Shown here: in pieces, positions 11,482-36,139 of the stretch
How the letters are laid out: each line of letters starts with the position of its first letter
How positions within the stretch are numbered: position 1 is the first letter of the stretch
Origin: Candidatus Uhrbacteria bacterium
GTDB lineage: Bacteria; Patescibacteriota; Patescibacteriia; CAIXNZ01
Reading direction: 5' to 3'
DNA length: 37,607 nt
NCBI GenBank assembly: GCA_011046145.1
Contig: DSBA01000020.1
Location: forward strand, 1 to 37,607
The notes under the pieces: generated by a model
Databases searched by the model: none
Seen by the model: only the letters and a program-made list of their open reading frames with translations
What the model was told of the DNA's origin: nothing
Program-made: the position numbers and the translations under genes

Positions 11482-12348
11482 ATGTTATCTAGCGAAATAA
11501 AATTTTTATTGCAACAGTATGGCATCAGGCCCAGTAAAGCCAAAGGGCAAAATTTTTTAATTAATCAGGGCGTTTTGCAAAAAATAATCAAGGCCGCGGA
11601 CTTGAGCCAAAATGATTGTGTTTTGGAAATCGGACCAGGACTTGGTGTTTTGACCGAAGGATTGATAAAAAAATCTAAAAAGGTTTTAAGCGTTGAGCTG
11701 GACAAGCGTTTGGCTTATTTTCTGAAACAAAAATTTAAAGGCGTTAAAAATTTAAAAATTTTGGAAACAGATATTTTGCAAATTAGAAATGATCAAATTG
11801 TTAAATTGTTAAATTGTTATGAATTAGGCTATAAAGTGGTAGCTAATTTGCCCTATAATATTACCAAACCGGTTTTGCAGAAATTTTTAACAGCCGAGCC
11901 CAAGCCAAAAGAAATAGTTGTTTTAGTCCAAAAAGAAGTGGCGCAAAAAATAGTTGCCAAGCCCGGCCAAATGAGCCTTTTAAGCCTTTCAGTCCAGTTT
12001 TACGGCCAGCCAGAAATTATAGATTATGTGGCCCAAGAAAATTTTTATCCCAAGCCGCAGGTTGAAAGCGCTATTTTAAAAATAAAATTAAATTTAGGAA
12101 AAATGCCGTTGGAGTTATCAACAGCCTTTTTAAAAATTGAGTTTGAAGAAAAAAAATTTTGGCGATTAATAAAAATAGGATTTAGTTCGCCCAGAAAACA
12201 ATTGCAGAATAATTTGGCTGCTGGTTTTCAAATATCCAAAGAAAAAGCCAAAAAAAAGCTAAAATTAGCTAATTTGCAAGAAAAAATCAGGCCCCAGGAT
12301 TTAAGCCTGGCAGATTGGGCAAATCTTTATTTGCAATTTATGGCTTGA
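11482..12348 (+). CDS. rsmA: 16S rRNA (adenine1518/1519-N6)-dimethyltransferase RsmA/KsgA
   Basis: It has KGQNFL, the EIGPGLGVLT SAM-binding loop and the NLPYNI motif. Confidence 0.88.
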   Translation: MLSSEIKFLLQQYGIRPSKAKGQNFLINQGVLQKIIKAADLSQNDCVLEIGPGLGVLTEGLIKKSKKVLSVELDKRLAYFLKQKFKGVKNLKILETDILQIRNDQIVKLLNCYELGYKVVANLPYNITKPVLQKFLTAEPKPKEIVVLVQKEVAQKIVAKPGQMSLLSLSVQFYGQPEIIDYVAQENFYPKPQVESAILKIKLNLGKMPLELSTAFLKIEFEEKKFWRLIKIGFSSPRKQLQNNLAAGFQISKEKAKKKLKLANLQEKIRPQDLSLADWANLYLQFMA

Positions 12349-12408: not shown

Positions 12409-13242
12409 ATGTCAGCAGCCCCTGAAAAAATCAAAGAATTTTTTGAAGAAAAAGGCGAAGCAATTACAGAGAAAATAGAAAAAACTCCCATGGAAAAGTT
12501 TTTTGTTTTCTTTTTGGTTTTAATTACAATTTCAGCTTTGGTTTTAGGTTATCTGCAATTTAAAAAAAATATAGAACAGCCTCTTTATTCCAGTTATTTG
12601 CGGGAAATAAGGGGAGAAACCAGGCAAAAATATCAGGCAGAAACTTTAAATCAATCAGCTTTGAATGCTGCTGAAATGCTCGGGCTTCAGCAACTGGATA
12701 GTGATCTGGATGGTTTAAGCGATTATGAAGAAATTTATATTTATGGCACCAGCCCTTATTTGGAAGACACTGACGGCGATGGAATTTTGGACAAACAGGA
12801 AATTTTGGCTGGGACAGATCCGAATTGTCCTGAAGGCCAGGATTGTTCGATTTTGCCTTTTAATGAAACTGGCAGCCAAAGTTCCAGCTATCCGGCTAAT
12901 CTTAACCAAGGAATGATTGAACCGCCGCTTATGGGCTTGGATTTTAATGATTTGTTAGAGATTGAAGATTTGCTTTTAAGGGGAGAAATTACTTTGGAGG
13001 ATTTGGGCATTAATGATCCGCAGATGCAGGCTATGTTTGACCAGCTATCCAGCGGCCAGTTGCGCAATATAGAACAAATATCTCCAGAAGAAAAAGAATT
13101 GATCATTGAATCGTTGCAAGATTTAACTCCGGCGCAAATCAGGCAGGAATTGGCAGCCAGGGGAATTGATGAGAATCTTTTAAATCAGGTTGATGATGAC
13201 ACTCTTAAGCAGATGTTTTTACAGACCCTTGATTTGTATTAA
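12409..13242 (+). CDS. Membrane-anchored protein with thrombospondin type-3-like Ca-binding repeats
   Basis: It has one TM segment (FFVFFLVLITISALVLGYL), then DSDLDGLSDYEE...EDTDGDGILDKQEILAGTDPN. It is the first gene of the co-directional block. Confidence 0.6.
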   Translation: MSAAPEKIKEFFEEKGEAITEKIEKTPMEKFFVFFLVLITISALVLGYLQFKKNIEQPLYSSYLREIRGETRQKYQAETLNQSALNAAEMLGLQQLDSDLDGLSDYEEIYIYGTSPYLEDTDGDGILDKQEILAGTDPNCPEGQDCSILPFNETGSQSSSYPANLNQGMIEPPLMGLDFNDLLEIEDLLLRGEITLEDLGINDPQMQAMFDQLSSGQLRNIEQISPEEKELIIESLQDLTPAQIRQELAARGIDENLLNQVDDDTLKQMFLQTLDLY

Positions 13243-13296
13243 ATTAAAAAAAATCAATTTGTTATTAGTTGGTTATAAATAAATTAAATATTTTTT

Positions 13297-16200
13297 ATGT
13301 TTAAGCCTGATAAAACAAAATTACAGAAAGCGGTAATTTTTCTTATGGCTGTAATTTTTGTTGGCAGTAATTTTTATTTTTTATTATTGGCAGGTTTAAA
13401 GCCAGTACAGGCAACTTTTCCAGTAGTTGATGTGCCGCAGGCGACTTTACAATCAATGTGGTATGCTGGCGATAAAGCTGAAAGCATTTTGCAAAAGGTT
13501 TGGGATGAAGTAGTGGCTATTTTTTTCAAAAATATTTTAGGCACAATGGCTAATATGATTGCCCAGCAATCAGCCAAATGGGTTGCCAGCGGAGGCAAAG
13601 GCGGCGCTCCGCAATTTATCAGCGACCCTAATTTTTGGCAGGATTTTGCTGATAAAGCAGTAGGGGATTTTATCCAGACAACAATGAAAAATTTAACAGG
13701 ACTTGATGTTTGTACTTTGGATCCGCAATTGGCTATAAATTTAGCCATAAATATTCCCTTTTTTCCGGATTGGTCAGGCGTTTATGAGCCGGATTGCAGC
13801 TGGACCCAGTTAAGGAGCCACTGGGAAGAGATTGGCCAAAGAAGGTTTGAAGATTTTATTTCTTTTGATTATGGCATTGGCGCTGGCGGGACTTTTGATG
13901 AAAATGTCGGACGTTTAAATACAGCTGTTGCTCAAGATATTAGTTTAAGAAGATGGCCTATTGAATTGGTAGGACATGGTTATATAATAGGTTGTGACAC
14001 GACTGCAATAAGCGGTGGTTTGGCTACTTGCACTGAACCGCCTGTACAAACGGACCTTTTGAGTTCAGCCAGGGCATTAGATTCTTATACTGCTACTTTG
14101 CGGGCTGATGTTGAGAAAATTTTAACCCATAAAGTGGCTGATACCCCGGCTGATTTAAGTGTTGGGCGTTATCCCATAACACCAGAAAACATGCCGATTA
14201 TCAGAGAAGCTTGGTTAAAGAATATTAATCCTTATATTAGTGATTTGCACCAGATAGCTGATTTATACAGCCGCTGTACAGGCAAAACAGCCTGCGCTTT
14301 AATGCAAATGCCGCCAGATCCACCATTTTGCAAGGCTGCTTTAGACAAGATTAATCTTAAGTCGTTTCTTTGCCCGATTGATGACGGCACAGATGATGAC
14401 GGCACAGATGATGACGGCACAGAAAGCCGTAATCAGGCAACAGCTTTAATTTACCAGACAGAGTTTAATCAAAAAGCCGGGCAAGTCGCAAATATCGCCA
14501 ATGCTATCAAAGGCGGCTTTGAATATTTAAAAACCCAAATAGAACAAAATTTCAAGCCAGAATTATTAGAAGGCAGCGTGGCTTATAATGCGCAACTGGC
14601 AGCCGGCCTTTTTGATCCCAGCGCTAATGAATTTAATGCTTATGAAACACTTGTCAGGCAAATGGCGGATATAAGCTGGAGTGAAGCAATGAATGCTCGC
14701 TTGCAAGCAATGATTGATCAGGGCTGGCAATCAACCACAGACCGCATTGCAGGCTATATTAGGACGCCTTCAAACTTGATCAGGGCCAGGGCAGAAAAAC
14801 AATTGGCTGAAGGCACTGACAGCATTTATGCTTACCACACCAAAAATATCGCGGCTGATGCTTTGGGTGTTTTTTTGCAGACGCTATGGAATGAATTAGC
14901 TTTGCAATTATTAGATATGCTTAATCCTGGCTATTCTGCAGAGACCAGAAGGCATTTATTGACTGTTCCAGGAGGCAAAGAAGCTTTGGAAAGTTTTAGC
15001 GTGATGTCATGGAATCCTTTTGAAGAGCTGATTGTTTCTGAAGAAGGAATTGACAGATATATTCAAAGAGTTGCCCAAAAATTTACAGTTAATTTGTCTT
15101 TTAAGGATGTAAATTTGCTGGCTGATTTCCAATTAAATATCAAAGGCGAGGCCAATCCTAATCTTTATAATAATGTTATTGACCAAAATTTTGCCATTGC
15201 CATTAATGATAAATTGACTATCAAGCAAGCGCTTGATTCTGGCAAATTAGTAGGCGATTATACTTTTTCCTATTCTCCTGCCCGCCCCGGCACATATAAT
15301 TTGGCTAATATCAGAAAGTTAAGAAAAGCCCGGGTAGTGCCTCTGGGTTTGGAACTGGCTGTCCAGTTAATCAGGGATTGCAATCACCGCAAAACTTTTA
15401 ATAATGGTCAGTATGCTGGTTTTCAAGATATTAATGACGTAAATCCGTATGGATACGACAATGTAAGCGATCCTTTTAATTCCCAAAGATTGCAAAATTG
15501 TTTGTTTAAGCCTTATTCAGCTGGCCAGGAGTTAAAAGATGTGAGAGATTATAATACCAGAAAAATGAATGAAGTGGCAGGGGCAACTTTAGCTGATGTG
15601 GTTGATGGTTTTGATAAGGCTGGTTCTGGTATTTGCGGCGATTTTGACGAAAATGAATCGCCTTTTTGCAATTTAGTTAATCCTAATTGGGTTTTAAAAA
15701 TACCGACTACTTTTTGCGCTTTGCAGACAACAAACGAGCCATTTGGCGAACTTTTAACCACCAATAGCAATAGCCAAAGGCAATCGCGCTGCCCTGATTT
15801 TGCTAGTTGTTTAAATGAAGATGGTAAAGGCAGCTGTATAAATGAAGATTATGGCTTTTGCGTCAAAGAAAAAAATGTCTGGCAGTTTGCGACTGATTCT
15901 TGTCCAGAAGAATTTAACAGCTGCCGCACTTATAGTTTGACAAGGTCAGGAGAAAGGACCTCGGTTTCCTATTTAAAAAATACTTTAAGCGGTAGCGATA
16001 TCTGCGGTCCTTATAATGCAGGCTGCAGCTGGTATTCTACGCAGACAGATTTAGCTGGTTTTTGGCAAAACGATGCCAGGATTTATTTTAACCGTTATGT
16101 TGAAGCTTGCGACAGGCAAAATGAAGGTTGCAGTGAATTTGTTTTATATCGCAATCCTGCCAATAACTTAGTCTTTGACTCAAGTTTTGAATATACTCCG

Positions 16201-19200
16201 GAAGGCAATTTTCCAGCTGGCTGGGATTTAAGATTAAAGCAGCGCGTTGATTTGCCGGCTGATTGCCAAGGGACTTTGACTGAAATTTGCAATTATTATC
16301 CTTATGATAATCAATCAGAATGTTTGATTAATAATGGGACTTGGTACGGCTATTGCGATGACGGCGAAAGCTGGAGCCAGGCAGAATGCTTGGACAAGGG
16401 ACAAAATTGGGAATTTGTTTGCCTTAATGCGATTAATAATCAAGCTGATAAAGCAGATTGCGAGGCTGGGGGAGGCGAGTATGAGTATTTTTGCACCAAC
16501 AGCATTTTAAAATATAATCTTTGCCAGAATCCCCAATTTACAGGCGATGACGCGCAAGAACAATGCTTGGCTAATGGCGGTACTTGGCAGCAAGAGTGTG
16601 AAATAGGCGGCAGCGCCAGCAGCGAACTGACCACTTTAGAAGATTGCATGGCTAATGATGGCAGTTGGCGCGAATTTTGCCAAGGGGCCAGATTATATGA
16701 TTTTACCAAACAAAGCTGCAATAATCTTTTGGGTGAATGGCGCGGCGAAGGGCCTTTTAGTGATTTGGCTTTTGTTTCCAAAGACGCAACCAATGTTTAT
16801 CAGGGGTTAAGCAAGCTCCAGGTTAATATAGGAGCTGTGCCTTTTGGCGAGGAATTAGTTTTAGTTTATAAAAGCCATTTTAATGATGAAACAAAAACTT
16901 TAACCAAAGCTGGCGATGCTTATACTGCCACAGCTTATTTTAAATCTAATCAGGTATTGAGCCAGCCCATTACGTTTAATTTGGCAAAAATGAGACAGAC
17001 GCAAAGTGAGCTGAATAGCAAGAGGTTTTTTATTGACCAAAATTATACCAGGGCAGACAGCACTATAATTACTGGAGCTGGAGGCACAGAGCTTGATATT
17101 AGGATTTATTTGCCGGGTGGCGAAGAAGGAGCCTTGGTTTATCTGGATGCAATTGGCTTATCCATTAATTCTTTGAATCAAGTCAGGAATTTTGATTTTA
17201 TTACGCCTTATGCTGATTATGAAGCTAATAATAAATTGTATTATAAAAATCCGCCTGAAAGGCTGAATTGCCATGGTTATGGCCCAGGTGATCCGGCTCC
17301 TCGGCTTGATATTGCGCCTTTAACCAAAGAAGCTTGTGAAGGCGTTGGCGGTTATTGGGATGAAGGTTTAATTTACAGAAATACGGTTGACTGCTATAAA
17401 TATGAACCCGATGATCCTATCTGCAATAATTTTATGAAAGTTTGCGAAGCAGAAGAAGTCGGCTGCCAGCTTTTTACGCCCTTAAACGGCGATCCTCAAG
17501 TGCCGGGCGTGGTAAGCATTACTGATTATTGCCCGGCAGAATGCGTGGGTTATGAAACTTATAAACAAGAGCCGGCTTTATATGAGCCAGAGCCTGATCC
17601 TTTATTCCATTATTTTATACCTGAAACAGCCCGTTCTTGTTCCTTGGCAGAAGTCGGTTGCGCCCAGTTTACTAATTTAGATGAAGTGGCTCGGGGCGGT
17701 GAGGGTATTGGCTATTATACTTATTTAAGGCAATGCATCAAGCCTAATCTTGGCTTGGGTGAAAAGACTTTTTTTACCTGGCAAGGTTCAGCAACAGGCT
17801 CTCCGCAATTGCTTAAATATGAATTTCAGCAAGATCCGGTTACTGGCGCGCCCAAAACAATTGACGGTTCAGGCGATTGCCGTTTGACTTTGAGCGAATA
17901 TGATTTAAACTGCGTTAATTTTTTTGACAGCGCTGGCATTAATTATCACCGCGATATCCGCAAAATCGTTTCAGTTTCAGATGATTGTTCGCCGTTCAGG
18001 AAAACAGAGTCAACCCAGGCAAATTGTCTGGCAACCAATGGCCGTTGGCAGGAAGATCTTCAGGCTTGCATTTATGATGCTATTCCAGCTGAAGCTATTT
18101 CTTGTTCTGCGGAAGCTAATGGCTGCAGAACTTTTATAGGCAATCGGGGCAATAATGTTTATGTGCAGATTTTTGACACTTTTGAAGGTATTGAAGGCAC
18201 TTGGGGATGGTATGCTGGCTCTGACGGCACTAGCGCAGAAGGACTGGCCAGAGTAGGAGAGTCAGTGCAAGTCGGCGGAAATTCTTTATTTGTTTCCTCT
18301 CCAGTTTCAGCTATTCATAAACCTGTAAACATTCAGAAAAATAATTTGTATACCCTTTCTTTTTGGGCCAAGACAAATGATCCAGCTGGCGAAGTCATTA
18401 CTGCAAAATTCAGCACAGCTGTGCCTGATGCCCAGGCTTCTACCCTGGAAGAATTTGCTACTTTAGAAAACAATCTGCAACTGACAAACGAATGGCGCAA
18501 TTATACCTTGGGTCCGGTTTTGGTCAGTTGGGATAATGTGGAAAATAACAGCCTGGTTTTTGATTCATTGGATAGCGAGGTTTATTTTGACAATATTTTA
18601 TTAAGGGTAGTGAGAGACAATGTCTATGTGGTTAAAAACAGCTGGTTTACGCCGGATAGCTGCGACCGCAACATTTTTGGCCAGACAGAAGAAGGCGCCA
18701 TGCTTGGCTGCCAAGCTTATCAGGATTTGCTGGGCCAGACTCACAACCTTAAATCTTTTACCAATTTGTGCCGTGAAAGCGCAATAGGCTGCCAGATTTT
18801 AATTGACACTAAAAATTCAACTAATGCCAATAAACAAATATTCAATGATGACAATCCATCGCCTTTGGATGATTATATTGTGCTGCGAGACGAATTAGTC
18901 ACTTTGGTGGTCAGTGATAATTTTATTTGTTCCAAAACAGATAAAGGCTGTCAAAAATTTGGAAAACCGGTTTACCAAGCTGTTTTGCCCACGTTTGATG
19001 ACGTATACTTGAAAAATGATCCGGATAAATATATTAATGTGCCTAATGCCATAATGTGCAATGAGGAATCTTTGGGCTGTTTGGAATTAATTAATGATGA
19101 GGGCAATGCTGAACATTTTAAAATTGATCCGACCAAGCTTTGCCAGTTTAAAACCAGCACAGTAAGCGGTGAAAATATTAATGGCTGGTTTAAAAAAGGC

Positions 19201-21246: not shown

Positions 21247-21262
21247 TTTTTCAGATAAATAA

Positions 21263-24151
21263 ATGCTCAAACAAATAAAAAACAAAAAACTTATTGCCCC
21301 AATTTTGCTATTGGCGGTTTTTGTTGTTTTCTTTTCTTTTTGGCCGGCTGATGCGGTTTTTGCCAGTGGTGCTATGGACAAAATTTTTACCACAGCTAAG
21401 AACGTAGGCATATCTATAATTCTTTTCATTGTTAATGTTTTAATTAGTTTAGTGGGTAAAATTTTAGTTTTGCTTATAAAAATATTAGTTATGCTCGCTT
21501 TGTACAATGATTTTATTTATAATCCCTATGTGCAAAAAGGCTGGGTAGTTATCCGCGATATTGTTAATATGTTTTTTATTTTGGGCTTGCTTTTGATTGC
21601 TTTTGCCACGGTTTTAAAAATAGAGAAATTTTCTTATAATAAACTTTTGGGCAGGTTGCTGATTATGGCGATTATAGTTAATTTTAGCCGGACTATTTGC
21701 GGCATTATAATAGATTTTTTCCAGGTGATAATGATAACTTTTGTTAAGTCTTTTAAAGATATTACTGGCGGTAATTTAATGAAAGGCTTTGGAACAGAAA
21801 GTTTATGGCAGGCTGACACAAGCGGCGGCGCAGCTACAAGCACTGTTGATCAAGGGATCCAGGCTGTGGTAGGTTCTATTTTCGGTTTGATTTTTGTTAT
21901 AATTGCGACTATTGTGGTAGCGATTTTTTGCATGATGCTGGCTATTAGAATTGTGGCTTTATGGATTTTAATTGTATTTTCGCCTTTGGCTTTTTTTTCC
22001 TGGGTTTTTGAGCCGGCTGGCGGAAAGATCGCTTCATTATCCCAGCAGTGGTTTGGACAATTTTTTAAATATTGCATGGTAGGCCCTTTTATAGCTTTTT
22101 TCCTTTGGATGGCGCTTATTAGCATGTCAACTGTTTCAGCCCAAATGACTACTAGCGCTGTTCAGGGTGGCATGAAAGCAGACGAGCTGAATAAGCCGGT
22201 TGAAGGTCTTTCGGCTGTGGGCAATGCAGGAAGCACGATTGGCTTTGTTATGGGTATTGCAATGTTGGTGGGAGGCTTATATTTCACTGGTCAAATGGGA
22301 GTGGTTGGTTCTAATTATGCTAGGGGAGGCGTTAATGCTATAAGAAATCAGACAGCGGGCAGAATGGAAAGCATGGCCAGAAGGACTGGCGCGGCAGCCA
22401 AAGGTGTAGCCATGGCGCCGGCCAGGGGAGGGGTTAAACTTGCCAAGATCGGAGGAAAACTTGGCGCTGAAAGAATGCAGATGAGAGGAGGCAAACTGGG
22501 CAGGCTTGCTTACGAAGCGCAATTAGCAACTTCCAAGGAAGGAAGGCAAGTTTTAAAAGATAGAGGCATGGCTATGGCAAGAGCGAAATTAGGCGGACAA
22601 CCAGGCGCGCGAGCTGAACAATTACAAAAAGAGTTAAAATCAAGAGAGGGGCTTTTGCGCAAGGCTGGCGCTGATAAAGATCCTAATGTGATGAAAAAAT
22701 TAGAAAAGCAATATAAAAAGTCTGGAGATAAAGACAATTATATGGCTTTAATGAATATTAAGGCGGCAGAGGGTAAAATTGAACAGTCAGATTTTCAAGA
22801 CGCGGTTAAAATGGGAGCATTTGACAGATTTGGCCATGTTGAGCATCTAAAAGATAAGAATGGGAAAAGAACAGGAAAAATTGATACTAAAAAAACAAGC
22901 GGGGCGGCTTTAATTGCCATGGAGCAGGTAGGGAAAGAATGGGAGAAATCTTTTGAAGATCAAAAGGGATTTAGAGCGTCTTTTTCGCCTATTGTTAGGG
23001 ATCCGATAACAAATGATTGGGAGGTCGTGGAAGGTCAAAAGGGCCAGGAGCTGAAAGCCAAGGATAGTGAATCTAGCATCTCAAGAGGCCGAGGAGAAAA
23101 ATTAGGCAAGGCAGCTAATAGCGGCCAGGTTGCTAATTTGGAGTCATCTACAGCAATGGAAGCATTTTCTCATTTGGTTGGGTTTGGCAAAAACGATGCC
23201 CATTTTCGCATGGTTGGAGATACTGGTCTTGCCAATGTCAAAAAGAGAAATGATGAATTCACTCAAGTTTTAACCAGTAATTTAGATGATAAAAGCAGCG
23301 AAGGCTACAAAGTATTGGAAAAGGCGGCTGATAAAAAGAAATTAACAGGCCAAGAAAAAGTTGATTTTATTGATAAAAGGAAACAAGAAATAAACGATTT
23401 AAAGCAATCTAAGTACTTTAAAGATAATGCCCAACATTTGGTTACTGTATCAAAAACTTCTTCTGGCAAATACGAAGCAGGAACAGGTAAAGAAATAACA
23501 GCTGGGCAGGAAAATCAAAATTTAAAGAATTATCTTCAAGGGCAGGGTATTATACCGACACCACCGCCGCCGCCAACGCCGCCCCCACCGCCTAAATATA
23601 AAGCTGAAATAGATAATTTTGTAGATAAGCGGATGTCGCAGGCGCCTTCTTTAGTCAAAAGCGCTGCCAAAGATTTTGTTACTGAAAAGGCCGGAGATAT
23701 TCTTCATGAAACCGAAGGCCTTGATCAAGCATCCCGGCAAAATAAAATTGCTAAAGAAATAGAAACAAAGACTAGATTGCGCGGACAGGATGCTAAAGAT
23801 ATGGCTGATATAATAATAAAAATGGAAACTCCGATGAAAGAAACGCGCGATAAAGTTTCGCCGAACCTTGACCAAATTGTTAAAAAAGTTAAGGATGAGT
23901 GGGATGCCGGCAGTAAAGATGCTGGGAAAGTTGAGATGAGATTTAATGTGTTCATACAACAATTAAAAAATGAAGCAAAATCCCATGGCTTGACAGAAGA
24001 TAGTTATCAGGCGCGGCAATTAAAAAAAGCCAAAGATGATCTGCTTAAGGAATTAACTAATCTAAATGCTACGGATGCCAGCATAAATAAAGCTATAGAT
24101 AAATTTCAAGCGAATGCCAGAAATTTGGGTTATAATGTCGGGAAAAAATAA
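21263..24151 (+). CDS. Polytopic membrane protein, VirB6/TrbL-like by architecture and position, with a ~600-aa hydrophilic C-terminal extension
   Basis: It has a signal-like N-terminus and at least 6 long hydrophobic segments in the first ~350 aa. A K/E-rich tail follows, containing PTPPPPPTPPPPP (nt 23555-23593). It lies upstream of the PrgI-like and VirB4 genes (a 474-aa ORF intervenes), much as prgH/virB6 do. There is no motif-level proof. Confidence 0.45.
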   Translation: MLKQIKNKKLIAPILLLAVFVVFFSFWPADAVFASGAMDKIFTTAKNVGISIILFIVNVLISLVGKILVLLIKILVMLALYNDFIYNPYVQKGWVVIRDIVNMFFILGLLLIAFATVLKIEKFSYNKLLGRLLIMAIIVNFSRTICGIIIDFFQVIMITFVKSFKDITGGNLMKGFGTESLWQADTSGGAATSTVDQGIQAVVGSIFGLIFVIIATIVVAIFCMMLAIRIVALWILIVFSPLAFFSWVFEPAGGKIASLSQQWFGQFFKYCMVGPFIAFFLWMALISMSTVSAQMTTSAVQGGMKADELNKPVEGLSAVGNAGSTIGFVMGIAMLVGGLYFTGQMGVVGSNYARGGVNAIRNQTAGRMESMARRTGAAAKGVAMAPARGGVKLAKIGGKLGAERMQMRGGKLGRLAYEAQLATSKEGRQVLKDRGMAMARAKLGGQPGARAEQLQKELKSREGLLRKAGADKDPNVMKKLEKQYKKSGDKDNYMALMNIKAAEGKIEQSDFQDAVKMGAFDRFGHVEHLKDKNGKRTGKIDTKKTSGAALIAMEQVGKEWEKSFEDQKGFRASFSPIVRDPITNDWEVVEGQKGQELKAKDSESSISRGRGEKLGKAANSGQVANLESSTAMEAFSHLVGFGKNDAHFRMVGDTGLANVKKRNDEFTQVLTSNLDDKSSEGYKVLEKAADKKKLTGQEKVDFIDKRKQEINDLKQSKYFKDNAQHLVTVSKTSSGKYEAGTGKEITAGQENQNLKNYLQGQGIIPTPPPPPTPPPPPKYKAEIDNFVDKRMSQAPSLVKSAAKDFVTEKAGDILHETEGLDQASRQNKIAKEIETKTRLRGQDAKDMADIIIKMETPMKETRDKVSPNLDQIVKKVKDEWDAGSKDAGKVEMRFNVFIQQLKNEAKSHGLTEDSYQARQLKKAKDDLLKELTNLNATDASINKAIDKFQANARNLGYNVGKK

Positions 24152-24160
24152 GCGTTAATT

Positions 24161-25585
24161 ATGAATAATCAAAAAATAAAAAGTTCAGATTTTGGGAGTT
24201 TTGAGCCGGATTTTTTGGCATTAATCAGCCGATATAAACTGGAAGAAAAAAAAGAAGATATTCTTAAATATGCGGCAGAGGCAATTTTAGGAAAAACTGA
24301 TGAGGTTGCAATGGCTGAGAAACTGATCAGCGATCTAAAGCTTGATTTTGGGGTTGCGGCTGATTTTGCTTATGATTTGCGGGTTGATATATTGGAAAAA
24401 ATTAAAAAAGAAGAAATTGAGGCGATTAAAAAAAATATTAAAGATCGAGAAGCGCAAGAATATTCCCCGCTTGCTATCAGCGATGAACTGATTAAAAAAA
24501 TAGGGTATAAGCCAAAAGATAAGGTTTTTCGCAAAAGATTTGATGACGCGATTTTTAGTTATTTAAAAGACATTAGGGATATGGAAGAATTGGAAGATAT
24601 TTTAACCCGTTCCACTAAAATCGGAGGGGTTGGGCTTTCAAAAGATGCTTTTTATGATTTGGAGAATTTATTAATTGATAAAAAAAAGGAAATTTCAGAA
24701 AAAGGCGTTGATATGGCTAAAATCATAAGCGATTACGAATCCCAATTTAAAAGCGGAGAATTTAAAGATGTAAAAGAGGAAGAAATTGATGTGGCTGCCA
24801 AGCCAGAAAGATTGTCGTCTGAAGAAGGAAGAACTGTTAGCGAAGATGTAACCATTGACAAGCTTTTGCAAGCCAAAGGCATTGAATTTGAAAAATTAAG
24901 CCGTAAAGAAGAGATAAAAAAAGATCTTTTAGAAAAAGAGGATTCCTTTGCGCCGCAAGCCAGGGCTTGGGAGGATAAAGCCAAAGAAGGCCAAAGTCTT
25001 TTAGCCAGGGAAATTGAGGAGAAAGAAGATTTTTTGGAAAGCAAAGAAGAAATTGCGCCGCCGCCGGTTATTAAAGAAGAGATAAAAAAAGAGACAGAGC
25101 CAAAAGAGCAAGAAGCGGTTAAAGAAACAGGCGCGGTTTTGCCGGCAGCAATGCCCCAGCCCCAAACTCCGCCATCTCAAACAAAGCCATTAGAACCAGA
25201 AGAAAAACAGCCCTTTTTAAAAAAATCTTTTCCAGCAGCGCGGCCCAGGGTTGAAGATGTTAAATTTGCCTCTAAATTATACGGGCCCATAGATGAATTA
25301 GCTGCTTTTAAAATAGAAGATCTGCGCCGCCTTTCCAAAAATCCCCAAGAAGCTGTGAATAAGATAAAAGACAAATTGGAGCTTTTAGAAGAGGAATCTT
25401 TAATTAAAAGGATTGAAGGCATTAAGGCTTTAAAAGCCAGCCCGCTTTATAAAATTTACGCTGATATTATGAATAAAGCGATTAAGGAAGGCAAGCCATT
25501 TGATCAGGTTTTGCAAGAAAATCCGGTTTTAAGCCCCGAAGAATTCAAGGCGATTATGGAGTTAAATAAAAGCTTAAAATATTAA
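24161..25585 (+). CDS. K/E-rich hypothetical protein with a Pro-rich linker
   Basis: The ORF is 474 aa with no TM segment and no recognisable catalytic motif. It has a Pro-rich stretch (APPPVIKEE...QPQTPPSQTKPLEPEE). The gap to the upstream gene is 9 nt. Confidence 0.5.
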   Translation: MNNQKIKSSDFGSFEPDFLALISRYKLEEKKEDILKYAAEAILGKTDEVAMAEKLISDLKLDFGVAADFAYDLRVDILEKIKKEEIEAIKKNIKDREAQEYSPLAISDELIKKIGYKPKDKVFRKRFDDAIFSYLKDIRDMEELEDILTRSTKIGGVGLSKDAFYDLENLLIDKKKEISEKGVDMAKIISDYESQFKSGEFKDVKEEEIDVAAKPERLSSEEGRTVSEDVTIDKLLQAKGIEFEKLSRKEEIKKDLLEKEDSFAPQARAWEDKAKEGQSLLAREIEEKEDFLESKEEIAPPPVIKEEIKKETEPKEQEAVKETGAVLPAAMPQPQTPPSQTKPLEPEEKQPFLKKSFPAARPRVEDVKFASKLYGPIDELAAFKIEDLRRLSKNPQEAVNKIKDKLELLEEESLIKRIEGIKALKASPLYKIYADIMNKAIKEGKPFDQVLQENPVLSPEEFKAIMELNKSLKY

Positions 25586-25596
25586 AATAAGAGATT

Positions 25597-26010
25597 ATGG
25601 AGCAATTTATGGTTCCGCAATTTATTGATGTGGAATCAAAAATAATAGGTCCGATTACAACCAGGCAATTTTTGATTTTAATGGTTGCTGGCATGCTGGA
25701 TTTTATTTTTTATAAGGTGTTTTATTTTAATACTTTTGTTGTAGTTGCCTTAATAGTTACCGGGATTTTTGGCGTGATAGCTTTTGTCAAGGTTAATGGC
25801 ATGCCTTTTCATTATTTTTTTCTGAACTTGGTCCAGACCTTGAATAGGCCGAGATTAAGAATTTGGTGCAAAGAGGAAGTTGCGGCTTTGCCGTCGGAAG
25901 AAAAAGCAGAAGTTAAAAAAGAATTTATTGCCAAGCCTTTTATTCCCCAATCAAGGCTGACTTCTTTGTCATTGATAGTTAATACCGGTGGAGTTTATCG
26001 GGAGGAATAA
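25597..26010 (+). CDS. PrgI-family / VirB3-like small T4SS membrane protein
   Basis: The N-terminus VPQFIDVESKIIGPITTRQFLIL is followed by two TM segments. This is the PrgI-family pattern (PF12666, from memory), and the gene sits upstream of the VirB4 gene with one 219-aa ORF between. Confidence 0.7.
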   Translation: MEQFMVPQFIDVESKIIGPITTRQFLILMVAGMLDFIFYKVFYFNTFVVVALIVTGIFGVIAFVKVNGMPFHYFFLNLVQTLNRPRLRIWCKEEVAALPSEEKAEVKKEFIAKPFIPQSRLTSLSLIVNTGGVYREE

Positions 26011-26084
26011 AATCTTTTTGTTATTAGTTATTGGCAAAATATTTTTTAGATTATTAATTCAAGTTTAAATAATAATTAATATTT

Positions 26085-26744
26085 ATGGCGATTAGCAAAC
26101 AGTCAACCCAAAAATATTTAGATATTGCGGAGATTAGGGAAAACACAGTAATTTTAAAAGACGGAACATTAAGGGCTGTTATAATGTGCTCCAGCGTTAA
26201 TTTTGCCTTAAAGTCAGAAGATGAACAAAAAGCTTTGATTTCAGGCTACATGGAATTTATAAATGCTTTAGAGCATCCTTTGCAAATAGTCATTCAGTCA
26301 AGGCGCCTGGATATTGAAAACTATATAAGGAGGTTAAGGGAGGCCCAGAAAAAACAGACTAATGAATTATTAAAAATGCAGATAATAGGCTATATGGATT
26401 ATATTAATGAATTGATTGAAATGGGAGAAATAATGACCAAAAGATTTTTTATTGTTGTGCCTTTTAATCCTTTGGGCGCTAAAGGTAAAAATTTTTGGAA
26501 CAGGCTGAAAGAGACTTTTACCGCCGGCAAGGCGATTAAAATGAAAAGAGAGAAGTTTTTAGACTACAAAAAAGACCTGGATTTGTTGGTTTCCAATATA
26601 GAATCTAATTTAGGCGGCATGGGGCTGGAAGCTGTTGTCTTGGATACACAAGGGCTAATAGAATTATTTTATAACACTTATAACCCAAAAACTTCCGAGA
26701 ATCAAAAATTAAAAGATATTAGCCAATTAGGCATAGAAAAATAA
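26085..26744 (+). CDS. Hypothetical protein resembling the non-ATPase N-terminal domain of Gram-positive VirB4-type ATPases
   Basis: The pattern IAEIRENTVILKDGTLRAVIMCSSVNFALKSEDEQKALISGYMEFINALEHPLQIVIQSRRLD recalls the N-domain of Tn916 Orf16/TcpF-like ATPases. It has no Walker motifs. This is an inference from memory. Confidence 0.3.
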   Translation: MAISKQSTQKYLDIAEIRENTVILKDGTLRAVIMCSSVNFALKSEDEQKALISGYMEFINALEHPLQIVIQSRRLDIENYIRRLREAQKKQTNELLKMQIIGYMDYINELIEMGEIMTKRFFIVVPFNPLGAKGKNFWNRLKETFTAGKAIKMKREKFLDYKKDLDLLVSNIESNLGGMGLEAVVLDTQGLIELFYNTYNPKTSENQKLKDISQLGIEK

Positions 26745-26761
26745 ATAATAATTTTTAATAT

Positions 26762-28708
26762 ATGGCATTGGAAATAACACCCAGCATAAAAGAAACCCAA
26801 AAGACAGAAGAGAAAATAACCCCGGCGCAACAAAAAGCTAAAGAAGCTGCGGCGCTAAAAGAAGAGGCAATTACTCTGGAAGAAGAAAAAATATACCGCA
26901 AAGGAGTTATTGACATAAAAGATTTAATCGCACCGGCGGCTTTTGAGGTCAAGCCAAGTTATCTGGTTTTAGGAGATACTTTTGTCAGGACGCTTTTTGT
27001 TTTGAATTATCCTCGTTATATAAGCATAGGTTGGTTTACGCCGATTGTAAATATGAGCAAGACTTTAGATGTGTCAATGTTTTTTTACCCGGTTAAGTCA
27101 GAAATTATTTTAAAACAGCTAAAAAAGAGAGTCGGGAATTTGCAGGCCCAGTTAATGTCTGATATTGAAAAAGGCGCTCCGCGCGATCCGATTTTAGAGA
27201 CTGCTTTGCGCGATATTGAACAGCTAAGGGACCAATTGACCCAAGGCATTGAAAAATTTTTCCAATTCGCTTTGTACGTGACTATTTATGCTGATAAGCT
27301 GGAAGAATTAGATAAAATGACTTCTGAAATAGAATCAATTTTTGGCGGCAAATTAATTTATACTAAAAAAGTTTTATACCAGGCAGAACAAGGCTTTAAA
27401 TCAACCCTGCCCTTGGGAATAGACGAATTATTGATTTCTTTTAATATGAATTCTTCCCCGGTGGCTTCTTCTTTTCCTTTTATTTCCTCTGAATTGACTT
27501 CTGATAATGGCATCTTATATGGCGTTAACCGGCACAATAATAGTTTGATAATTTTTGATCGTTTTTCTCTGCAGAATGCCAACTTTGTGGTTTTTGCCAC
27601 CTCCGGCGCAGGCAAAAGCTATACTATCAAACTGGAGGTTTTGAGAAGTTTAATGCTGGGAACAGATGTCATTATTATTGACCCTGAAAGAGAATATCTG
27701 CATTTAGCAGAAGCAGTTGGCGGCACTTATGTTGATATTTCTCTTTCTTCAAAAAACAAAATAAATCCTTTTGATTTGCCAAGGGCGATTGGCGACGCTT
27801 CAACTGAAGATATTATCCGCAGCGCGGTTATTACTTTGAAAGGCTTATTGCGCATAATGCTGGGCAAATTGACAGTAGAAGAAGATACTATTTTGGACAG
27901 GGCTTTAATTGAGACCTATGCCAGCAAAGATATTACGGCTGATTCAGATTTATCAACAATAGAGCCGCCTGTTATGCTGGATTTGCAGAATATTTTGGAA
28001 GGCATGGAAGGGGCTGGAAGCCTAGGCTTAAGATTAAGAAAATATACAGACGGAACTTTTTCAGGACTTTTCAACCGGCCGACTAATGTTGATGTTAAAA
28101 ACCAACTAGTTATCTTTTCCGTCAGAGATCTGGAGGACGAGTTGCGGCCGATAGCAATTTACACCATAGTCAATTATATTTGGAATGTTGTGCGTTCAGA
28201 AGTCAAGAAAAGGATTTTGGTAATTGACGAGGCCTGGTGGCTAATGACCCAAGAGGATTCAGCAAAATTTATTTACGCCTTAGTTAAAAGATGCAGGAAA
28301 TATTATTTAGGCGTGACGACAATTACCCAGGATGTCAATGACTTTTTAAACAATCCATACGGCAAAGCCATTGTCACAAATTCAGCGCTCCAAATGCTTT
28401 TGAAGCAATCGCCGGCGGCAATTGACAATATCCAGAAATTATTTCTTTTGACAGAAGGGGAAAAATATTTGCTTTTGGAAGGCGGGGTAGGTGAAGGCAT
28501 ATTTTTTGCCGGCAGAAAACATGCAGCGATTAAAGTGGTGGCTTCTTACAATGAAGACCAGTTAATTACCAGCGATCCAAGGCAGCTTTTGGAAATTGAA
28601 GCAGCCAAGCGTGAATTTGAAGAAGAAACTTCAGGAGAAGAAAATGAAGAGAGTGCCGGCCAAAGCGCGCCGCGCGCTTCTGAGGGGGTTGAAGAAATTG
28701 ATATATAA
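26762..28708 (+). CDS. VirB4-family T4SS ATPase
   Basis: It has Walker A VVFATSGAGKSYT (nt ~27596-27622) and Walker B RILVIDEAWWLM. The N-domain LGDTFVRTLFVLNYPRYISIGWF is typical of VirB4/PrgJ/TraE. Confidence 0.85.
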   Translation: MALEITPSIKETQKTEEKITPAQQKAKEAAALKEEAITLEEEKIYRKGVIDIKDLIAPAAFEVKPSYLVLGDTFVRTLFVLNYPRYISIGWFTPIVNMSKTLDVSMFFYPVKSEIILKQLKKRVGNLQAQLMSDIEKGAPRDPILETALRDIEQLRDQLTQGIEKFFQFALYVTIYADKLEELDKMTSEIESIFGGKLIYTKKVLYQAEQGFKSTLPLGIDELLISFNMNSSPVASSFPFISSELTSDNGILYGVNRHNNSLIIFDRFSLQNANFVVFATSGAGKSYTIKLEVLRSLMLGTDVIIIDPEREYLHLAEAVGGTYVDISLSSKNKINPFDLPRAIGDASTEDIIRSAVITLKGLLRIMLGKLTVEEDTILDRALIETYASKDITADSDLSTIEPPVMLDLQNILEGMEGAGSLGLRLRKYTDGTFSGLFNRPTNVDVKNQLVIFSVRDLEDELRPIAIYTIVNYIWNVVRSEVKKRILVIDEAWWLMTQEDSAKFIYALVKRCRKYYLGVTTITQDVNDFLNNPYGKAIVTNSALQMLLKQSPAAIDNIQKLFLLTEGEKYLLLEGGVGEGIFFAGRKHAAIKVVASYNEDQLITSDPRQLLEIEAAKREFEEETSGEENEESAGQSAPRASEGVEEIDI

Positions 28709-28785
28709 ATAAAAAATGACATTTGTGATTAGCCTTGAATATTGGCTGATTACTGATTTACAATAAATTAATTTTTTAAAATTTT

Positions 28786-29448
28786 ATGGCTGAACCAATC
28801 AAAGATAAATTGACTAAAAATAAAAAAAGGCTCTGGCTGATTATTTTACTTTTGTTGCTTTTAATAATTGTAATTTTAATTTATTTGCTATTAGCTTATT
28901 TTAAGGCGCCTTTGCCCGGGGTGGTTGATTTAAATAACAATATGAATCAGGAGCCAATACCTTTGGAGGAAATTATTATTCCCGATTCTTTTAACCGTCC
29001 GGATGGGGCTGTTTTGGCTGATTTAACGGCTGATGCAGAGAGAGAAGGCACCCAAGAATTATCGCCATCAATCAATCTTTTATTTGTGGCGCAGGCTTTT
29101 GCAGAAAGGTTCGGCAGTTATTCCAACCAGGGCGATTATGCCAATTTTGGAGATTTGAAAATTTTCATGACAGATTCTCTGGATAATTGGGTGCAGCAGA
29201 CTTATATAGATGAATTAAAGAAAAAAAATCCTGATTTTAACATATATTATGCTTTAGAAACAAAGGCGATTTCTACAGAGGTTTTAAGTTTAGACGAATC
29301 TGTTGGCCGGGCGGAAATAATGGTCAAAACACAGCGGCAGGAATTTGACAATGATCTTGTTAATCCTAGGGTTTTTTATCAGGATATACTTTTGAAAATG
29401 GTAAAGCAAAATAATGAATGGAAAGTTGATGGAGCTTTTTGGCAATAA
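28786..29448 (+). CDS. Bitopic membrane protein, VirB8-like in size and topology (possible NTF2-like ectodomain)
   Basis: At 220 aa it has a short basic N-terminus, one TM (LWLIILLLLLLIIVILIYLLLAYF) and a ~170-aa extracytoplasmic domain ending NNEWKVDGAFWQ. Its position after VirB4 fits. There is no sequence-level proof. Confidence 0.3.
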   Translation: MAEPIKDKLTKNKKRLWLIILLLLLLIIVILIYLLLAYFKAPLPGVVDLNNNMNQEPIPLEEIIIPDSFNRPDGAVLADLTADAEREGTQELSPSINLLFVAQAFAERFGSYSNQGDYANFGDLKIFMTDSLDNWVQQTYIDELKKKNPDFNIYYALETKAISTEVLSLDESVGRAEIMVKTQRQEFDNDLVNPRVFYQDILLKMVKQNNEWKVDGAFWQ

Positions 29449-29518
29449 GCTGGCAAATTTTTATCAGATTATTTGCGGGTCAGAATATTTGAAAAATTAA
29501 AAACTATATATTTTTAGG

Positions 29519-30256
29519 ATGAAAAACTTGGTTAATAATCTGTCAAGCGTTAAGGATTTTTTATTAAATTTGATTTTTCCCAAAGAATGTTTGGGTTGCG
29601 GACAAGAAGGCCGCTATTTATGCCAGCTCTGCCAGTCTAAAATTCTTTTGAATCAGAAAAATTATTGCGCCTTTTGCCATAAGGAGAGCTCTTTATCCAA
29701 AATTTGCCAGCTTTGCCAAAAAGAATCGCCGTTATTAAATATCTGGGTGGCTGCTGATTATAATAATGAGATTTTACAGTCCTTAATCCATAATTTAAAA
29801 TATAAATATATTGAGGAAAGCTCTCAGTCTTTAGCGGGTTTAATTATTAGCTATTTGGAAAAAAATAAAATTTTTAGTTTGTTGGCTATAAATAGATCCA
29901 ATGCTGTAATGGTGCCAGTGCCTTTGCATAAAAAGCGCTATTTGGAAAGAGGCTTTAACCAAAGTTTTTTACTTGCCAAGGAAATAAGCGATTTTTATAA
30001 AATAGAAATTGGGCAGTTATTGCGGCGCCGGGTAAATACCATAAGCCAGGTTAATTTGAAGAGAAACGAGCGTCAGGCAAACATTCAAAATGCTTTTGTT
30101 TTTCAGGAAGATAAACTGATAGATAAAAATAAAAAAATCATCTTAATAGATGATGTGATTACGACGGGCAGCACATTAAATGAATGTGCCAAAGTTTTGG
30201 CTAAAAGCGGTTTTAAAGAAATTTATGGTTTGGCGATTGCTCAGAGGGATGATTGA
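29519..30256 (+). CDS. comFC: ComF-family protein (ComFC, phosphoribosyltransferase-like competence protein)
   Basis: It has N-terminal Cys pairs (CLGCGQ...CQLCQ, CAFCH...CQLCQ) and the PRT motif ILIDDVITTGSTL. Confidence 0.85.
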   Translation: MKNLVNNLSSVKDFLLNLIFPKECLGCGQEGRYLCQLCQSKILLNQKNYCAFCHKESSLSKICQLCQKESPLLNIWVAADYNNEILQSLIHNLKYKYIEESSQSLAGLIISYLEKNKIFSLLAINRSNAVMVPVPLHKKRYLERGFNQSFLLAKEISDFYKIEIGQLLRRRVNTISQVNLKRNERQANIQNAFVFQEDKLIDKNKKIILIDDVITTGSTLNECAKVLAKSGFKEIYGLAIAQRDD

Positions 30257-30329
30257 TTGACTATAACCATAGCAAATAAGCAAGCAAAATATTTTTTGAA
30301 GAGATATTATTATAATTGTTATATAAGGA

Positions 30330-30416
30330 CGGAGAGGGTGGGATTCGAACCCACGGCCCCGTTGCCGGGGCTCCGGTTTTCAAGACCGGTGCATTCGACC
30401 GCTCTGCCACCTCTCC
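30330..30416 (-). tRNA. tRNA-Ser (anticodon UGA), no encoded CCA
   Basis: The minus strand reads GGAGAGGTGGCAGAGCGGTCGAATGC...CCGGTCTTGAAAACCGG, with anticodon loop CTTGAAA. It has a long variable arm, the T-arm GTGGGTTCGAATCCCAC and a 7-bp acceptor stem. Confidence 0.9.
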
Positions 30417-30501
30417 AAATAAAGTTTAGGGCATTAAGTATTGGGCAAGAGTTGAAAGATATTGCCTCGTTTAATACCCAATACTCATTGATAGATTTAT
30501 G

Positions 30502-30593
30502 CGGAGAGGGGGGGATTCGAACCCCCGCGCCGGTTAAAACACCGACCTACAGGTTTAGCAAACCCGCCCCTTCAGCCTCTTGGGTACCTCTCC
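30502..30593 (-). tRNA. tRNA-Ser (anticodon GCU), no encoded CCA
   Basis: The minus strand reads GGAGAGGTACCCAAGAGGCTGAAGGGGCGGGTTTGCTAAACCTG, with anticodon loop TTGCTAA. It has a long variable arm and the T-arm GGGGGTTCGAATCCCCC. Confidence 0.9.
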
Positions 30594-30730: not shown

Positions 30731-31240
30731 ATGGAACAAAATCAGACAGAAAAAGAACAAGAAGAAATCGGCGTGGGTGAAATTTATTTTTCCTGGAAAA
30801 TCCCGGAATATGTTTTGCCTCAAAGAAGCAGGCGCTGGTATTTTGTCATGCTTGGCTTGGCGGTTTTTTTGATAATTTATAGCATTTTTACGGCTAATTT
30901 TCTTTTTGCTTTGATTATTATAATCGCTATTTATATTATTTTTTTAAGGATGTATCACCAGCCCAAAGAATTGATTTTCCAAATTGCGGAGGAGGGAATA
31001 CTTGTTGGCAATACTTTTTATGAATATAGCCGGATAAAGAATTTTTACATAATTTATAATCCGCCGGTTGTCAAAAAATTATTTTTCACCTTTAAAGGGT
31101 TGAGCCCGGATATTTCTATACCTTTAGAAGATATGAATCCTTTGGTTATCAGGAAAAAATTATTAGAATATATTGATGAAGACCTTGAAAAAGAATACCA
31201 AAGCATTGATGACCAGTTGGAAACAATTTTAAAGTTGTAA
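30731..31240 (+). CDS. Hypothetical membrane protein (two TM segments plus a C-terminal soluble domain)
   Basis: The ORF is 169 aa with hydrophobic segments YFVMLGLAVFLIIYSIF and FLFALIIIIAIYIIFL. A terminator follows it. Confidence 0.55.
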   Translation: MEQNQTEKEQEEIGVGEIYFSWKIPEYVLPQRSRRWYFVMLGLAVFLIIYSIFTANFLFALIIIIAIYIIFLRMYHQPKELIFQIAEEGILVGNTFYEYSRIKNFYIIYNPPVVKKLFFTFKGLSPDISIPLEDMNPLVIRKKLLEYIDEDLEKEYQSIDDQLETILKL

Positions 31241-35615: not shown

Positions 35616-35770
35616 CCGCCGAAGCATAAAAGTTTCGTCTATCCCAATGGGAAAAAATATATTTTAAACCCAATGTGGTTCATGGGGGGGTGATAATTGT
35701 CCCCTCAAACCCTGTTTCCACCTCCTTAGACAAGGAGCAGATCTTTTATGCTTTGCCACGAAAATTCTTC

Positions 35771-35817
35771 GCCCGCTCGGGTAGGCAAGGCTTTTATGAC
35801 CTGCCGCGTCCCTTCTC
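35771..35817. repeat. 47-nt repeat R2 (GGGTAG + imperfect hairpin with CTTTTATG loop)
   Basis: It reads GCCCGCTCGGGTAGGCAAGGCTTTTATGACCTGCCGCGTCCCTTCTC and lies within the 3' end of copy B. Confidence 0.7.
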
Positions 35818-35874
35818 TTTCTCTTGAACTCACGCCTTTTATTTTTTTAACTATATGCGAAATATCCTCCCTTT

Positions 35875-35934
35875 GGGTAGCGACGAATTCATTCGTCGCT
35901 GGATTTTGCGCCGCGAATGAATTCGCGGCTACCC
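35875..35934. repeat. REPIN/BIME-like doublet inside copy B
   Basis: It reads GGGTA GCGACGAAT TC ATTCGTCGC TGGATTTTGC GCCGCGAAT GA ATTCGCGGC TACCC. The architecture, termini and linker match 35267-35331, but the stem sequences differ. Confidence 0.7.
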
Positions 35935-36139
35935 GCGGTTGGATTAACAGATGGAGATGATCAACGATTATGCAAAAACCTAAAATTTTAAATTTTAATT
36001 CATTTCTTAATTTATCTAAGATACTTAAAAATAGTTCATAACAACTTTCATTCTTAAAAAATGGGAATTTTTTAAATGTCCGAAAGGTCACAAAATGTAT
36101 ATCGCCAGGAGAATTAAATTTCTGCATTATAATCTTTTA

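Follow-up and report, generated by a model that had tools for sequence, protein, structure and literature searches.

What kind of machine is encoded by genes of a type IV secretion system (T4SS) lying in one row with a giant cysteine-rich protein and with comF, in a housekeeping neighbourhood? The question is raised by contig DSBA01000020.1 of assembly GCA_011046145.1, a metagenome-assembled genome (MAG) of 'Candidatus Uhrbacteria', which belongs to the ABY1-class Patescibacteria; the window analysed here (37,607 nucleotides) is essentially this one whole 37.6-kb contig. Nine co-directional open reading frames (ORFs) on the + strand span positions 12409-30256, bordered by rsmA on the 5' side and by tRNA-Ser/recG on the 3' side, and the gaps between them measure, in order, 54, 16, 9, 11, 74, 17, 77 and 70 nt. 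An earlier reading made from the letters alone (the sequence-only reading) had placed all nine with gaps of 9-77 nt, and its coordinates, strand and gaps were all verified. Scans for promoters and terminators were indistinguishable from shuffled sequence and are uninformative on operon structure. The nine ORFs are:

12409..13242, +, 277-aa single-pass TSP3-repeat membrane protein (TSP3_bac, one transmembrane (TM) segment)
13297..21246, +, 2649-aa Cys-rich giant protein (CBM_4_9 in two stretches, N-terminal hydrophobic segment)
21263..24151, +, 962-aa polytopic protein, probably of the 'extended VirB6' kind (topology, position, weak TrbL/VirB6 matches in relatives)
24161..25585, +, 474-aa soluble protein rich in lysine and glutamate, here p474 (no TM segment, no family match)
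25597..26010, +, 137-aa PrgI/VirB3-like protein with two TM segments (Pfam PrgI PF12666)
26085..26744, +, 219-aa TrsD-like protein, encoded on its own and homologous to the N-terminal domain of VirB4 (NF041427)
26762..28708, +, 648-aa VirB4 ATPase of MPF_FATA / CD1110 type, Patescibacteria lineage (NF045971)
28786..29448, +, 220-aa bitopic VirB8-like protein (TM helix, disordered linker, NTF2-like domain)
29519..30256, +, 245-aa ComF/ComFC (TIGR00201, DZR_2, Pribosyltran)

The block is very probably the ABY1-class version of a chromosomal, vertically inherited Patescibacteria T4SS that derives from monoderm conjugation machinery (MPF_FATA). The VirB3 and VirB4 assignments are firm. The 648-aa protein scores 358.8 bits against the NCBIfam model NF045971 of the CD1110 family (cut-off 325) and carries SGAGKS and VIDEAWW motifs. 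Its counterparts in 80 ABY1 species-level genomes share 67-87% identity with it, while the best plasmid VirB4 among the matches listed reaches 30-36% identity. These genomes are labelled Falkowbacteria, Uhrbacteria, Magasanikbacteria, Kerfeldbacteria, Komeilibacteria and Veblenbacteria, all of which we take to be class ABY1 in GTDB. Judged by its profile and identity figures, this VirB4 is of MPF_FATA descent and has other Patescibacteria proteins as its closest relatives. The 137-aa protein passes the Pfam cut-off for PrgI PF12666 (37.6 bits, cut-off 27), and the 219-aa ORF matches both the NCBIfam TrsD/TraD model NF041427 (E 1e-8) and VirB4 N-terminal regions (E 3e-7), and its TrsD homologues are annotated with Pfam TraC-like PF26593. 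Thus, what the sequence-only reading had described as a PrgI/VirB3-like protein, a VirB4-N-domain-like ORF and a bona fide VirB4 ATPase were well chosen labels, the second of them being TrsD.

The bitopic 220-aa protein, which had been called VirB8-like from its size and topology, shows no significant sequence-profile match. Its AlphaFold2 model, built on an 84-homologue alignment with a mean predicted local distance difference test score (pLDDT) of 85.5 (~97 over residues 100-220), opens at the N-terminus with a TM helix, which a disordered linker joins to an NTF2-like alpha+beta domain. T4SS proteins matched by this model in a Foldseek search of the PDB include PrgL (7aed, E 2.4e-4), CagV (6iqt, TM-score 0.69, target-normalised), the R388 machine chain 8rtd_Y, DotI, TraM and TcpC. 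The predicted fold, the topology and the position right after virB4 together make the VirB8-like assignment well supported. An alignment (hhalign) of the 220-aa family with the ORF that follows the hydrolase on a plasmid of Clostridium perfringens turned up no genuine match.

The two remaining genes of the T4SS part are less familiar, with no direct family match in profile searches for the 962- or 474-aa protein, nor for the 220-aa one. The 962-aa protein has ten hydrophobic segments in residues 1-336, followed by a hydrophilic tail of ~620 aa rich in lysine, glutamate, glycine and proline, a build that resembles the 'extended VirB6' proteins as described in a 2025 review (PMC12857230). The Pfam TrbL/VirB6 families were matched below threshold by 4/45 members of its family (best E 7.2e-5), a further relative (P0157) covers TrbL profile positions 28-210 of 215 (E 0.0049, again sub-threshold), and hhalign aligned one hydrophobic block of the family with the ORF upstream of PrgI on the C. 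perfringens plasmid (E 0.011). At least 15 relatives were found in a protein search with the hydrophobic N-terminus. On these sequence matches the protein is probably VirB6-like: the topology and position noted by the sequence-only reading stand, while the matches speak weakly for the VirB6 identity itself. Profile matches of its tail to PDB sequences proved to be coiled-coil noise, and the 220-, 474- and 962-aa families gave nothing useful in that comparison.

As for p474, its description as a K/E-rich unknown was borne out: it is soluble and lacks a TM segment, and neither Pfam nor the PDB yielded a match to it. Its family is very large, counting 2,237 cluster representatives when E<=1e-3 is allowed and still 1,494 at E<=1e-10, and is conserved mainly in the C-terminal ~140 residues. 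In two relatives, additional genes lie between the giant and VirB6-like genes. One Uhrbacteria genome (L081, 22060-23874) has a 604-aa Peptidase_M23 protein and two small ORFs there; the peptidase may be a VirB1-like cell-wall hydrolase, none of which is found in the window. One Falkowbacteria genome (L023, 1740-2390) has an ORF6N-domain protein (PF10543) with a weak match to the phage regulatory protein Rha family.

The locus thus holds the gene set of a cytoplasmic-membrane translocon, made of PrgI/VirB3, a split VirB4 (TrsD plus ATPase), a VirB8-like NTF2 protein and a probable extended VirB6, and this monoderm-type inner-membrane set comes without DNA-processing parts. No match to a relaxase, VirD4, integrase, pilin or peptidoglycan hydrolase was obtained among the window ORFs scanned with Pfam, as had been noted before, and the small ORFs, which were inspected in part of the window, included no pilin-like one. 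The VirD4, relaxase and MobC of the C. perfringens plasmid had no tblastn match in the window or in 87 related loci (1.49 Mb), in what is a low-sensitivity test; the VirB4 of the same plasmid matches the window and 83 of those loci. Relaxase, VirD4 and MobC are missing as well from the Pfam lists of loci L081-L088, apart from the plasmid comparison locus (L085), which carries them. The small ORFs found between the giant and VirB6-like genes of relatives were considered as pilins and rejected: nine of this kind, taken from related ABY1 loci and lying upstream of the VirB6-like gene, gave no PF18895/PF04956 match. Housekeeping flanks and the missing relaxase, type IV coupling protein (T4CP), integrase and att-like repeats of the window bear out the earlier view that the block is chromosomal and non-conjugative; no oriT or plasmid replicon was found in the window either.

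In order to see which genes belong together, we counted neighbours around VirB4 in 80 genomes, with the loci that have enough flank as denominators. TrsD is present in 80/80 loci, each time as a separate ORF, and PrgI in 75/75; p474 follows with 64/68 and the VirB8-like gene with 70/74. The VirB6-like gene lies upstream of VirB4 in 43/52 loci. ComF is found directly downstream in 21/61, and recG and radA lie within ~10 kb in 32/43 and 33/43 loci, respectively. The invariant core is therefore p474-PrgI-TrsD-VirB4-VirB8-like, and p474 belongs to this near-invariant, co-inherited T4SS core. A fragment of the giant family was detected upstream in at least 27/49 of the VirB4 loci having at least 9 kb of upstream flank, a count that is a lower bound owing to the flank limit.

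Concomitantly, the complete array occurs in three distant members of the giant family (28-31% identity), in the order rsmA, TSP3, giant, VirB6-like, p474-like and PrgI, then, where the locus extends, TrsD, VirB4, VirB8-like and ComF, with recG at the end of one of the three. The array with its rsmA and recG borders recurs in deeply diverged ABY1 genomes, so that the conservation on which the sequence-only reading had staked its case is real. Taken as a whole, the locus is modular: rsmA-TSP3-giant / VirB6-like / p474-PrgI-TrsD-VirB4-VirB8-like / comF-p169-recG, where p169 is a 169-aa protein. Many of the public assemblies with an ABY1-type locus (L001, L005, L008 and others) are titled 'uncultured Gammaproteobacteria bacterium' (TPA_asm MAGs), and two more go under Planctomycetota or Pirellulales; either such titles look mistaken or the bins seem contaminated.

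Several points weigh against our conclusion or narrow it. The sole basis of the weakly supported VirB6 assignment is the set of sub-threshold sequence matches given above. The NTF2 fold is generic and not VirB8-specific, and the NTF2 domains of ARC6/PARC6, Tim44 and the CaMKII hub match the 220-aa model about as well as VirB8 proteins do. VirD4 homologues lie far from virB4 in most Patescibacteria (Quinonero-Coronel et al. 2025, Microb Genom, PMC12102498), and a VirD4-like protein, a hydrolase or pilins may be encoded elsewhere in the genome, the window being one contig. Finally, in counts centred on the giant among 80 metagenome loci inspected (66 informative upstream and 36 downstream), rsmA lies within 5 kb upstream of the giant in 62/66 loci, a tighter link than that to the T4SS, whose VirB6-like gene comes no more than 3.5 kb downstream of it in 26/36 (~70% of lineages); unrelated housekeeping genes follow the giant in the other 10/36, and nine VirB4 loci lacking an upstream VirB6-like gene have ahcY, metK, riboflavin genes or a transporter in that place.

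These last counts bear on the giant protein, which the sequence-only reading had made the partner of the T4SS. Its description of the pair itself was accurate. The 277-aa protein carries calcium-binding TSP3_bac repeats (43.5 bits, Pfam cut-off 25) and spans the membrane once, with its TM segment at residues 26-44, and its gene, or one like it, lies immediately 5' of the giant gene in 64/66 loci. The giant has 98 Cys in 2649 aa (3.7%), CBM_4_9 in its two stretches at 45.6 bits (Pfam cut-off 25.9), at least 12 copies of the motif C-x6-(G)C-x2-[FY], and a single N-terminal hydrophobic segment that is either a signal peptide or a signal anchor. The 22 clustered homologues measure 2,091-4,314 aa, their Cys content is 2.9-5.2% and their N-termini are of Sec type, and many Cys columns are invariant throughout the family alignment; a Pfam scan of two larger relatives returned no domain besides CBM_4_9. 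One conserved peptide retrieved 395 metagenome relatives, from which the 80 loci were then inspected. An AlphaFold2 model of residues 1-1150 (23 sequences) was poor, with a mean pLDDT of 57, and Foldseek found no match to it at E <= 0.001.

Most plausibly, the TSP3-giant pair is a module that binds the host surface, and glycans in particular. A close contender, which we place just short of an even chance, holds that it is an independent surface adhesin or envelope module, that its adjacency to the T4SS is inherited order, and that the T4SS starts at the VirB6-like gene or at p474. Apart from the rsmA link and the runs into housekeeping genes, this reading draws on a locus (L086) where a 448-aa ORF and nusA come after the pair and T4SS genes are lacking, on the giant's own Sec-type N-terminus, so that the T4SS is not needed for its export, and on large Cys-rich extracellular proteins of the candidate phyla radiation that have been noted with no T4SS link (PMC4736985). 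It has to accommodate a same-strand adjacency that persists at ~70% despite divergence of the giant to 25-30% identity, the mere 16 nt between the giant and the VirB6-like gene in the window, and a host-contact role left unfilled by pilins: no VirB2-type pilin was found in the window or in the scanned ABY1 ORFs, as opposed to six in Southlakia. The adjacency of giant and T4SS is more persistent than the comF link and less persistent than the rsmA link. Because the giant is more closely tied to rsmA, a housekeeping gene unrelated to it, than to the T4SS, the adjacency is partly inherited gene order, and synteny alone therefore cannot establish a shared function, which is where the argument of the sequence-only reading from adjacency fails. 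Nor did its view of the giant as an obligate T4SS partner survive, the giant being a frequent neighbour. The pair is a separable module rather than a fixed T4SS subunit and may work alongside the T4SS; a real partnership between the two is possible, at somewhat less than an even chance.

Within our reading of a vertically inherited ABY1 T4SS, the machine would not conjugate. By analogy with Southlakia epibionticum, it may move macromolecules across the envelope at host-cell contact and so support epibiotic growth, while the Sec-exported giant with its carbohydrate-binding (CBM) domains and the TSP3 membrane protein would bind host-surface glycans. The comF, recG and radA neighbours, and dprA in one locus, would be a weak hint of DNA import; direction and cargo are speculative.

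Two specific cargoes can be weighed. Export of protein effectors into a host bacterium, with p474 serving as substrate, as chaperone or in place of the coupling protein, is in our estimate unlikely. The authors of the Southlakia study favour protein export or another non-DNA role, the coupling and relaxase proteins being unrecognisable there (Wang et al. 2023, Cell, PMC10633639), and p474 is a soluble protein whose very large family has kept its C-terminal domain conserved. Against this stand the lack of a recognisable domain in p474, the lack of an evident effector-like gene or immunity pair, and the VirD4-type receptor that most protein-secreting T4SSs use (PMC12102498), no such receptor being seen in the window.

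Import of DNA, as by Helicobacter ComB or archaeal Ced, with ComFC, RecG, RadA and DprA handling the incoming single strand, we consider rather improbable as the role of the locus. The ComFC identity proposed earlier holds: the 245-aa protein has a DZR_2 double zinc ribbon and a phosphoribosyltransferase-like Pribosyltran domain, both above the Pfam cut-offs, and it matches TIGR00201 at E 4.5e-32 and 111.5 bits, below the trusted cut-off of 233. ComFC is needed for transport and handling of single-stranded DNA (ssDNA) in H. pylori, which uses T4SS uptake (PMC9005727), import of DNA or other macromolecules has been proposed (PMC12102498), and the comF, recG and radA counts given above fit the proposal. 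The 'tight coupling' of the array to ComFC on which the sequence-only reading had built is loosened by those same counts: ComF is a variable neighbour of the T4SS, adjacent in a minority of loci, and recG and radA occur in at least two arrangements around VirB4. All three are moreover housekeeping genes, and inherited order may be what keeps them close. A weak match of VirB4 to the CedB profile (E 2e-11) speaks for import, but it reaches 43 bits against a cut-off of 700 and no CedA-like genes were recognised, so that the locus does not qualify as an archaeal Ced system; no ComEC or DNA receptor is found in the window either. In Southlakia, deletion of comEC abolished competence and left viability unaffected (PMC12857230), and DNA uptake is therefore disfavoured as the essential role there. 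In one relative (L084, 2610-3707), dprA and topA lie ~6 kb upstream of the rsmA-TSP3-giant-T4SS array, dprA being a further transformation gene nearby. Doubtful, too, is a bolder composite, in which the ABY1 T4SS would have swapped the VirB2-type pilin array of Saccharibacteria for a giant disulfide-rich, carbohydrate-binding protein of 2600-4300 aa, kept at the surface by the TSP3 protein, would dock on host glycans and would import host DNA or nucleotides for ComFC, RecG and RadA.

A decayed integrative conjugative element inserted beside tRNA-Ser, for which two adjoining tRNA-Ser genes, an IS200-like Y1 transposase 5.5 kb downstream and a block G+C somewhat above that of the flanks might speak, is effectively refuted and has almost no chance of being right, since no flanking direct (att-like) repeats surround the block, no integrase, relaxase or T4CP is found in the window or the 87 related loci, the same borders (rsmA upstream; comF, recG or radA downstream) are kept in deeply diverged ABY1 genomes, and VirB4 is far nearer to other ABY1 proteins than to any plasmid protein.

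The surroundings of the T4SS locus are those of a chromosome. Upstream lie nrdR, nrdD, nrdG, htrA, prfB, a glycosyltransferase, an amylase, a ROK kinase and rsmA, and downstream come two tRNA-Ser genes, the 169-aa TM protein, tRNA-Arg, recG, dksA, a DNA glycosylase, the IS200-like Y1 transposase and radA. An Rfam scan found the three tRNAs and nothing else. The flanking features that recur in the argument are:

11482..12348, +, rsmA/ksgA, 16S rRNA dimethyltransferase (Pfam RrnaAD, 164 bits); a conserved border on the upstream side, presumably no component of the machine
30327..30593, -, two tRNA-Ser genes, anticodons TGA and GCT (ARAGORN, Rfam); the co-directional array ends here
30731..31240, +, p169, 169 aa with two TM segments, conserved in position between comF and recG
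31476..33545, +, recG (Pfam RecG_wedge, DEAD, Helicase_C)
36140..37471, -, radA (Pfam zinc ribbon, KaiC-type ATPase, ChlI, Lon_C), a name given by the domain combination

The p169 gene sits among tRNA genes and has a weak match to DUF5673; the order comF-p169-recG is found in many ABY1 loci, and L084 has a p169 homologue at 29073-29681. The 133-aa IS200-like Y1 transposase (35726-36127, -) adjoins radA, and a 38%-identical copy adjoins radA in the same relative order in L005; it may be domesticated or long-resident rather than a recent insertion. At the other end of the window, nrdD (anaerobic ribonucleotide reductase) seems to be split (982-3231): a 682-aa ORF (982-3030) stops after its zinc ribbon, and a separate 46-aa ORF (3091-3231) has its own GGGAGGAG ribosome-binding site and the glycyl-radical-type motif SRIVGY, with four stop codons and an AT-rich inverted repeat between the two.

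How does the ABY1 locus compare with known systems? ComB of Helicobacter is a diderm VirB2-4/6-10 system, and the ABY1 locus differs from it by having no VirB7, VirB9 or VirB10. They are alike in being relaxase-less, with ComFC handling incoming ssDNA in the ComB case (PMC9005727), a resemblance that is functional and speculative. The kinship is closer with conjugative T4SSs of the CD1110/CTn2 and pCF10 type (MPF_FATA), which share PrgI, a VirB4 scoring above the cut-off of the CD1110 model, probably a polytopic VirB6 analogue, and a VirB8-like NTF2 protein (PrgL/TcpC class), and TrsD is common to pGO1-type systems. Unlike the ABY1 locus, these systems have a relaxase, VirD4/T4CP, an SLT/CHAP hydrolase and a PrgB-type adhesin, and the example plasmid locus carries all the parts that are missing here; VirB4 is just 30-36% identical between the two, and the ABY1 locus is chromosomal and apparently vertically inherited. 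The large Cys-rich extracellular proteins of Peribacteria (Anantharaman et al. 2016, PMC4736985), compared with the giant family by description, are alike in their very large size, signal peptide and proposed role in attachment, and were described with no T4SS link.

The cluster SEML1_0006-0019 of Southlakia epibionticum comes nearer still: it is chromosomal, has VirB4, a TrsD-like ORF, PrgI, a ~1000-aa VirB6-like protein and an NTF2-like protein, and has no recognisable relaxase or coupling protein (PMC10633639). It is essential for epibiotic growth, as found by transposon sequencing (Tn-seq), and essentiality is demonstrated for Southlakia alone. Six VirB2-like pilins and a lysozyme/peptidase lie near its virB4 and no giant is present, the opposite of the ABY1 locus. 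Few machines have been demonstrated to be indispensable to epibiotic life; the Patescibacteria T4SS is one of them, and for this reason the parts of the ABY1 version matter. Our locus adds no new system, and the survey sharpens the ABY1 parts list: a five-gene core that includes an uncharacterised soluble protein with more than 2000 cluster representatives, a VirB8-like protein recognisable by its fold, and the TSP3-giant module as a concrete candidate host-binding element where pilins are not detected. These are testable leads, not discoveries in themselves.

The sequence-only reading could not assign the locus to a described system; such systems are in fact published (PMC12102498, PMC10633639 and the review PMC12857230, which covers both studies), down to the TrsD/PrgI/VirB6 content and the co-location with comF, recG and radA in ABY1. 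In the survey of 3,035 Patescibacteria genomes (PMC12102498), a monophyletic Patescibacteria clade of 2,425 VirB4 proteins falls within MPF_FATA, with TrsD, PrgI/VirB3, VirB6 and VirB2-like pilins near virB4; the T4SS is chromosomal, relaxases are almost absent, KsgA (RsmA) is abundant near virB4, VirB8 homologues are almost confined to ABY1, and comF, recG and radA lie beside the T4SS in that class. The pilins are common there and not universal, and in this window they were not detected. The giant with its many Cys and its CBM domains, the TSP3 protein paired with it and the conserved p474 are present in the ABY1 locus and unmentioned in that paper, which detected no PrgB-like adhesins and whose text-form supplementary tables, as far as these go, mention neither TSP3 nor CBM_4_9. 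A chromosomal, non-conjugative T4SS for host interaction or DNA import, with its comF association, is thus the published view; the giant-TSP3 pair that usually adjoins the T4SS, the sole element we did not find in the literature searched, is a modest addition to it. In all else the locus is of a piece with the Patescibacteria-clade T4SS, being chromosomal and relaxase-less with an MPF_FATA VirB4 adjoined by TrsD and PrgI/VirB3, and with its published ABY1 arrangement of a VirB6-like gene (here a probable one) and a VirB8-like gene, KsgA/rsmA nearby and comF, recG and radA in the neighbourhood.

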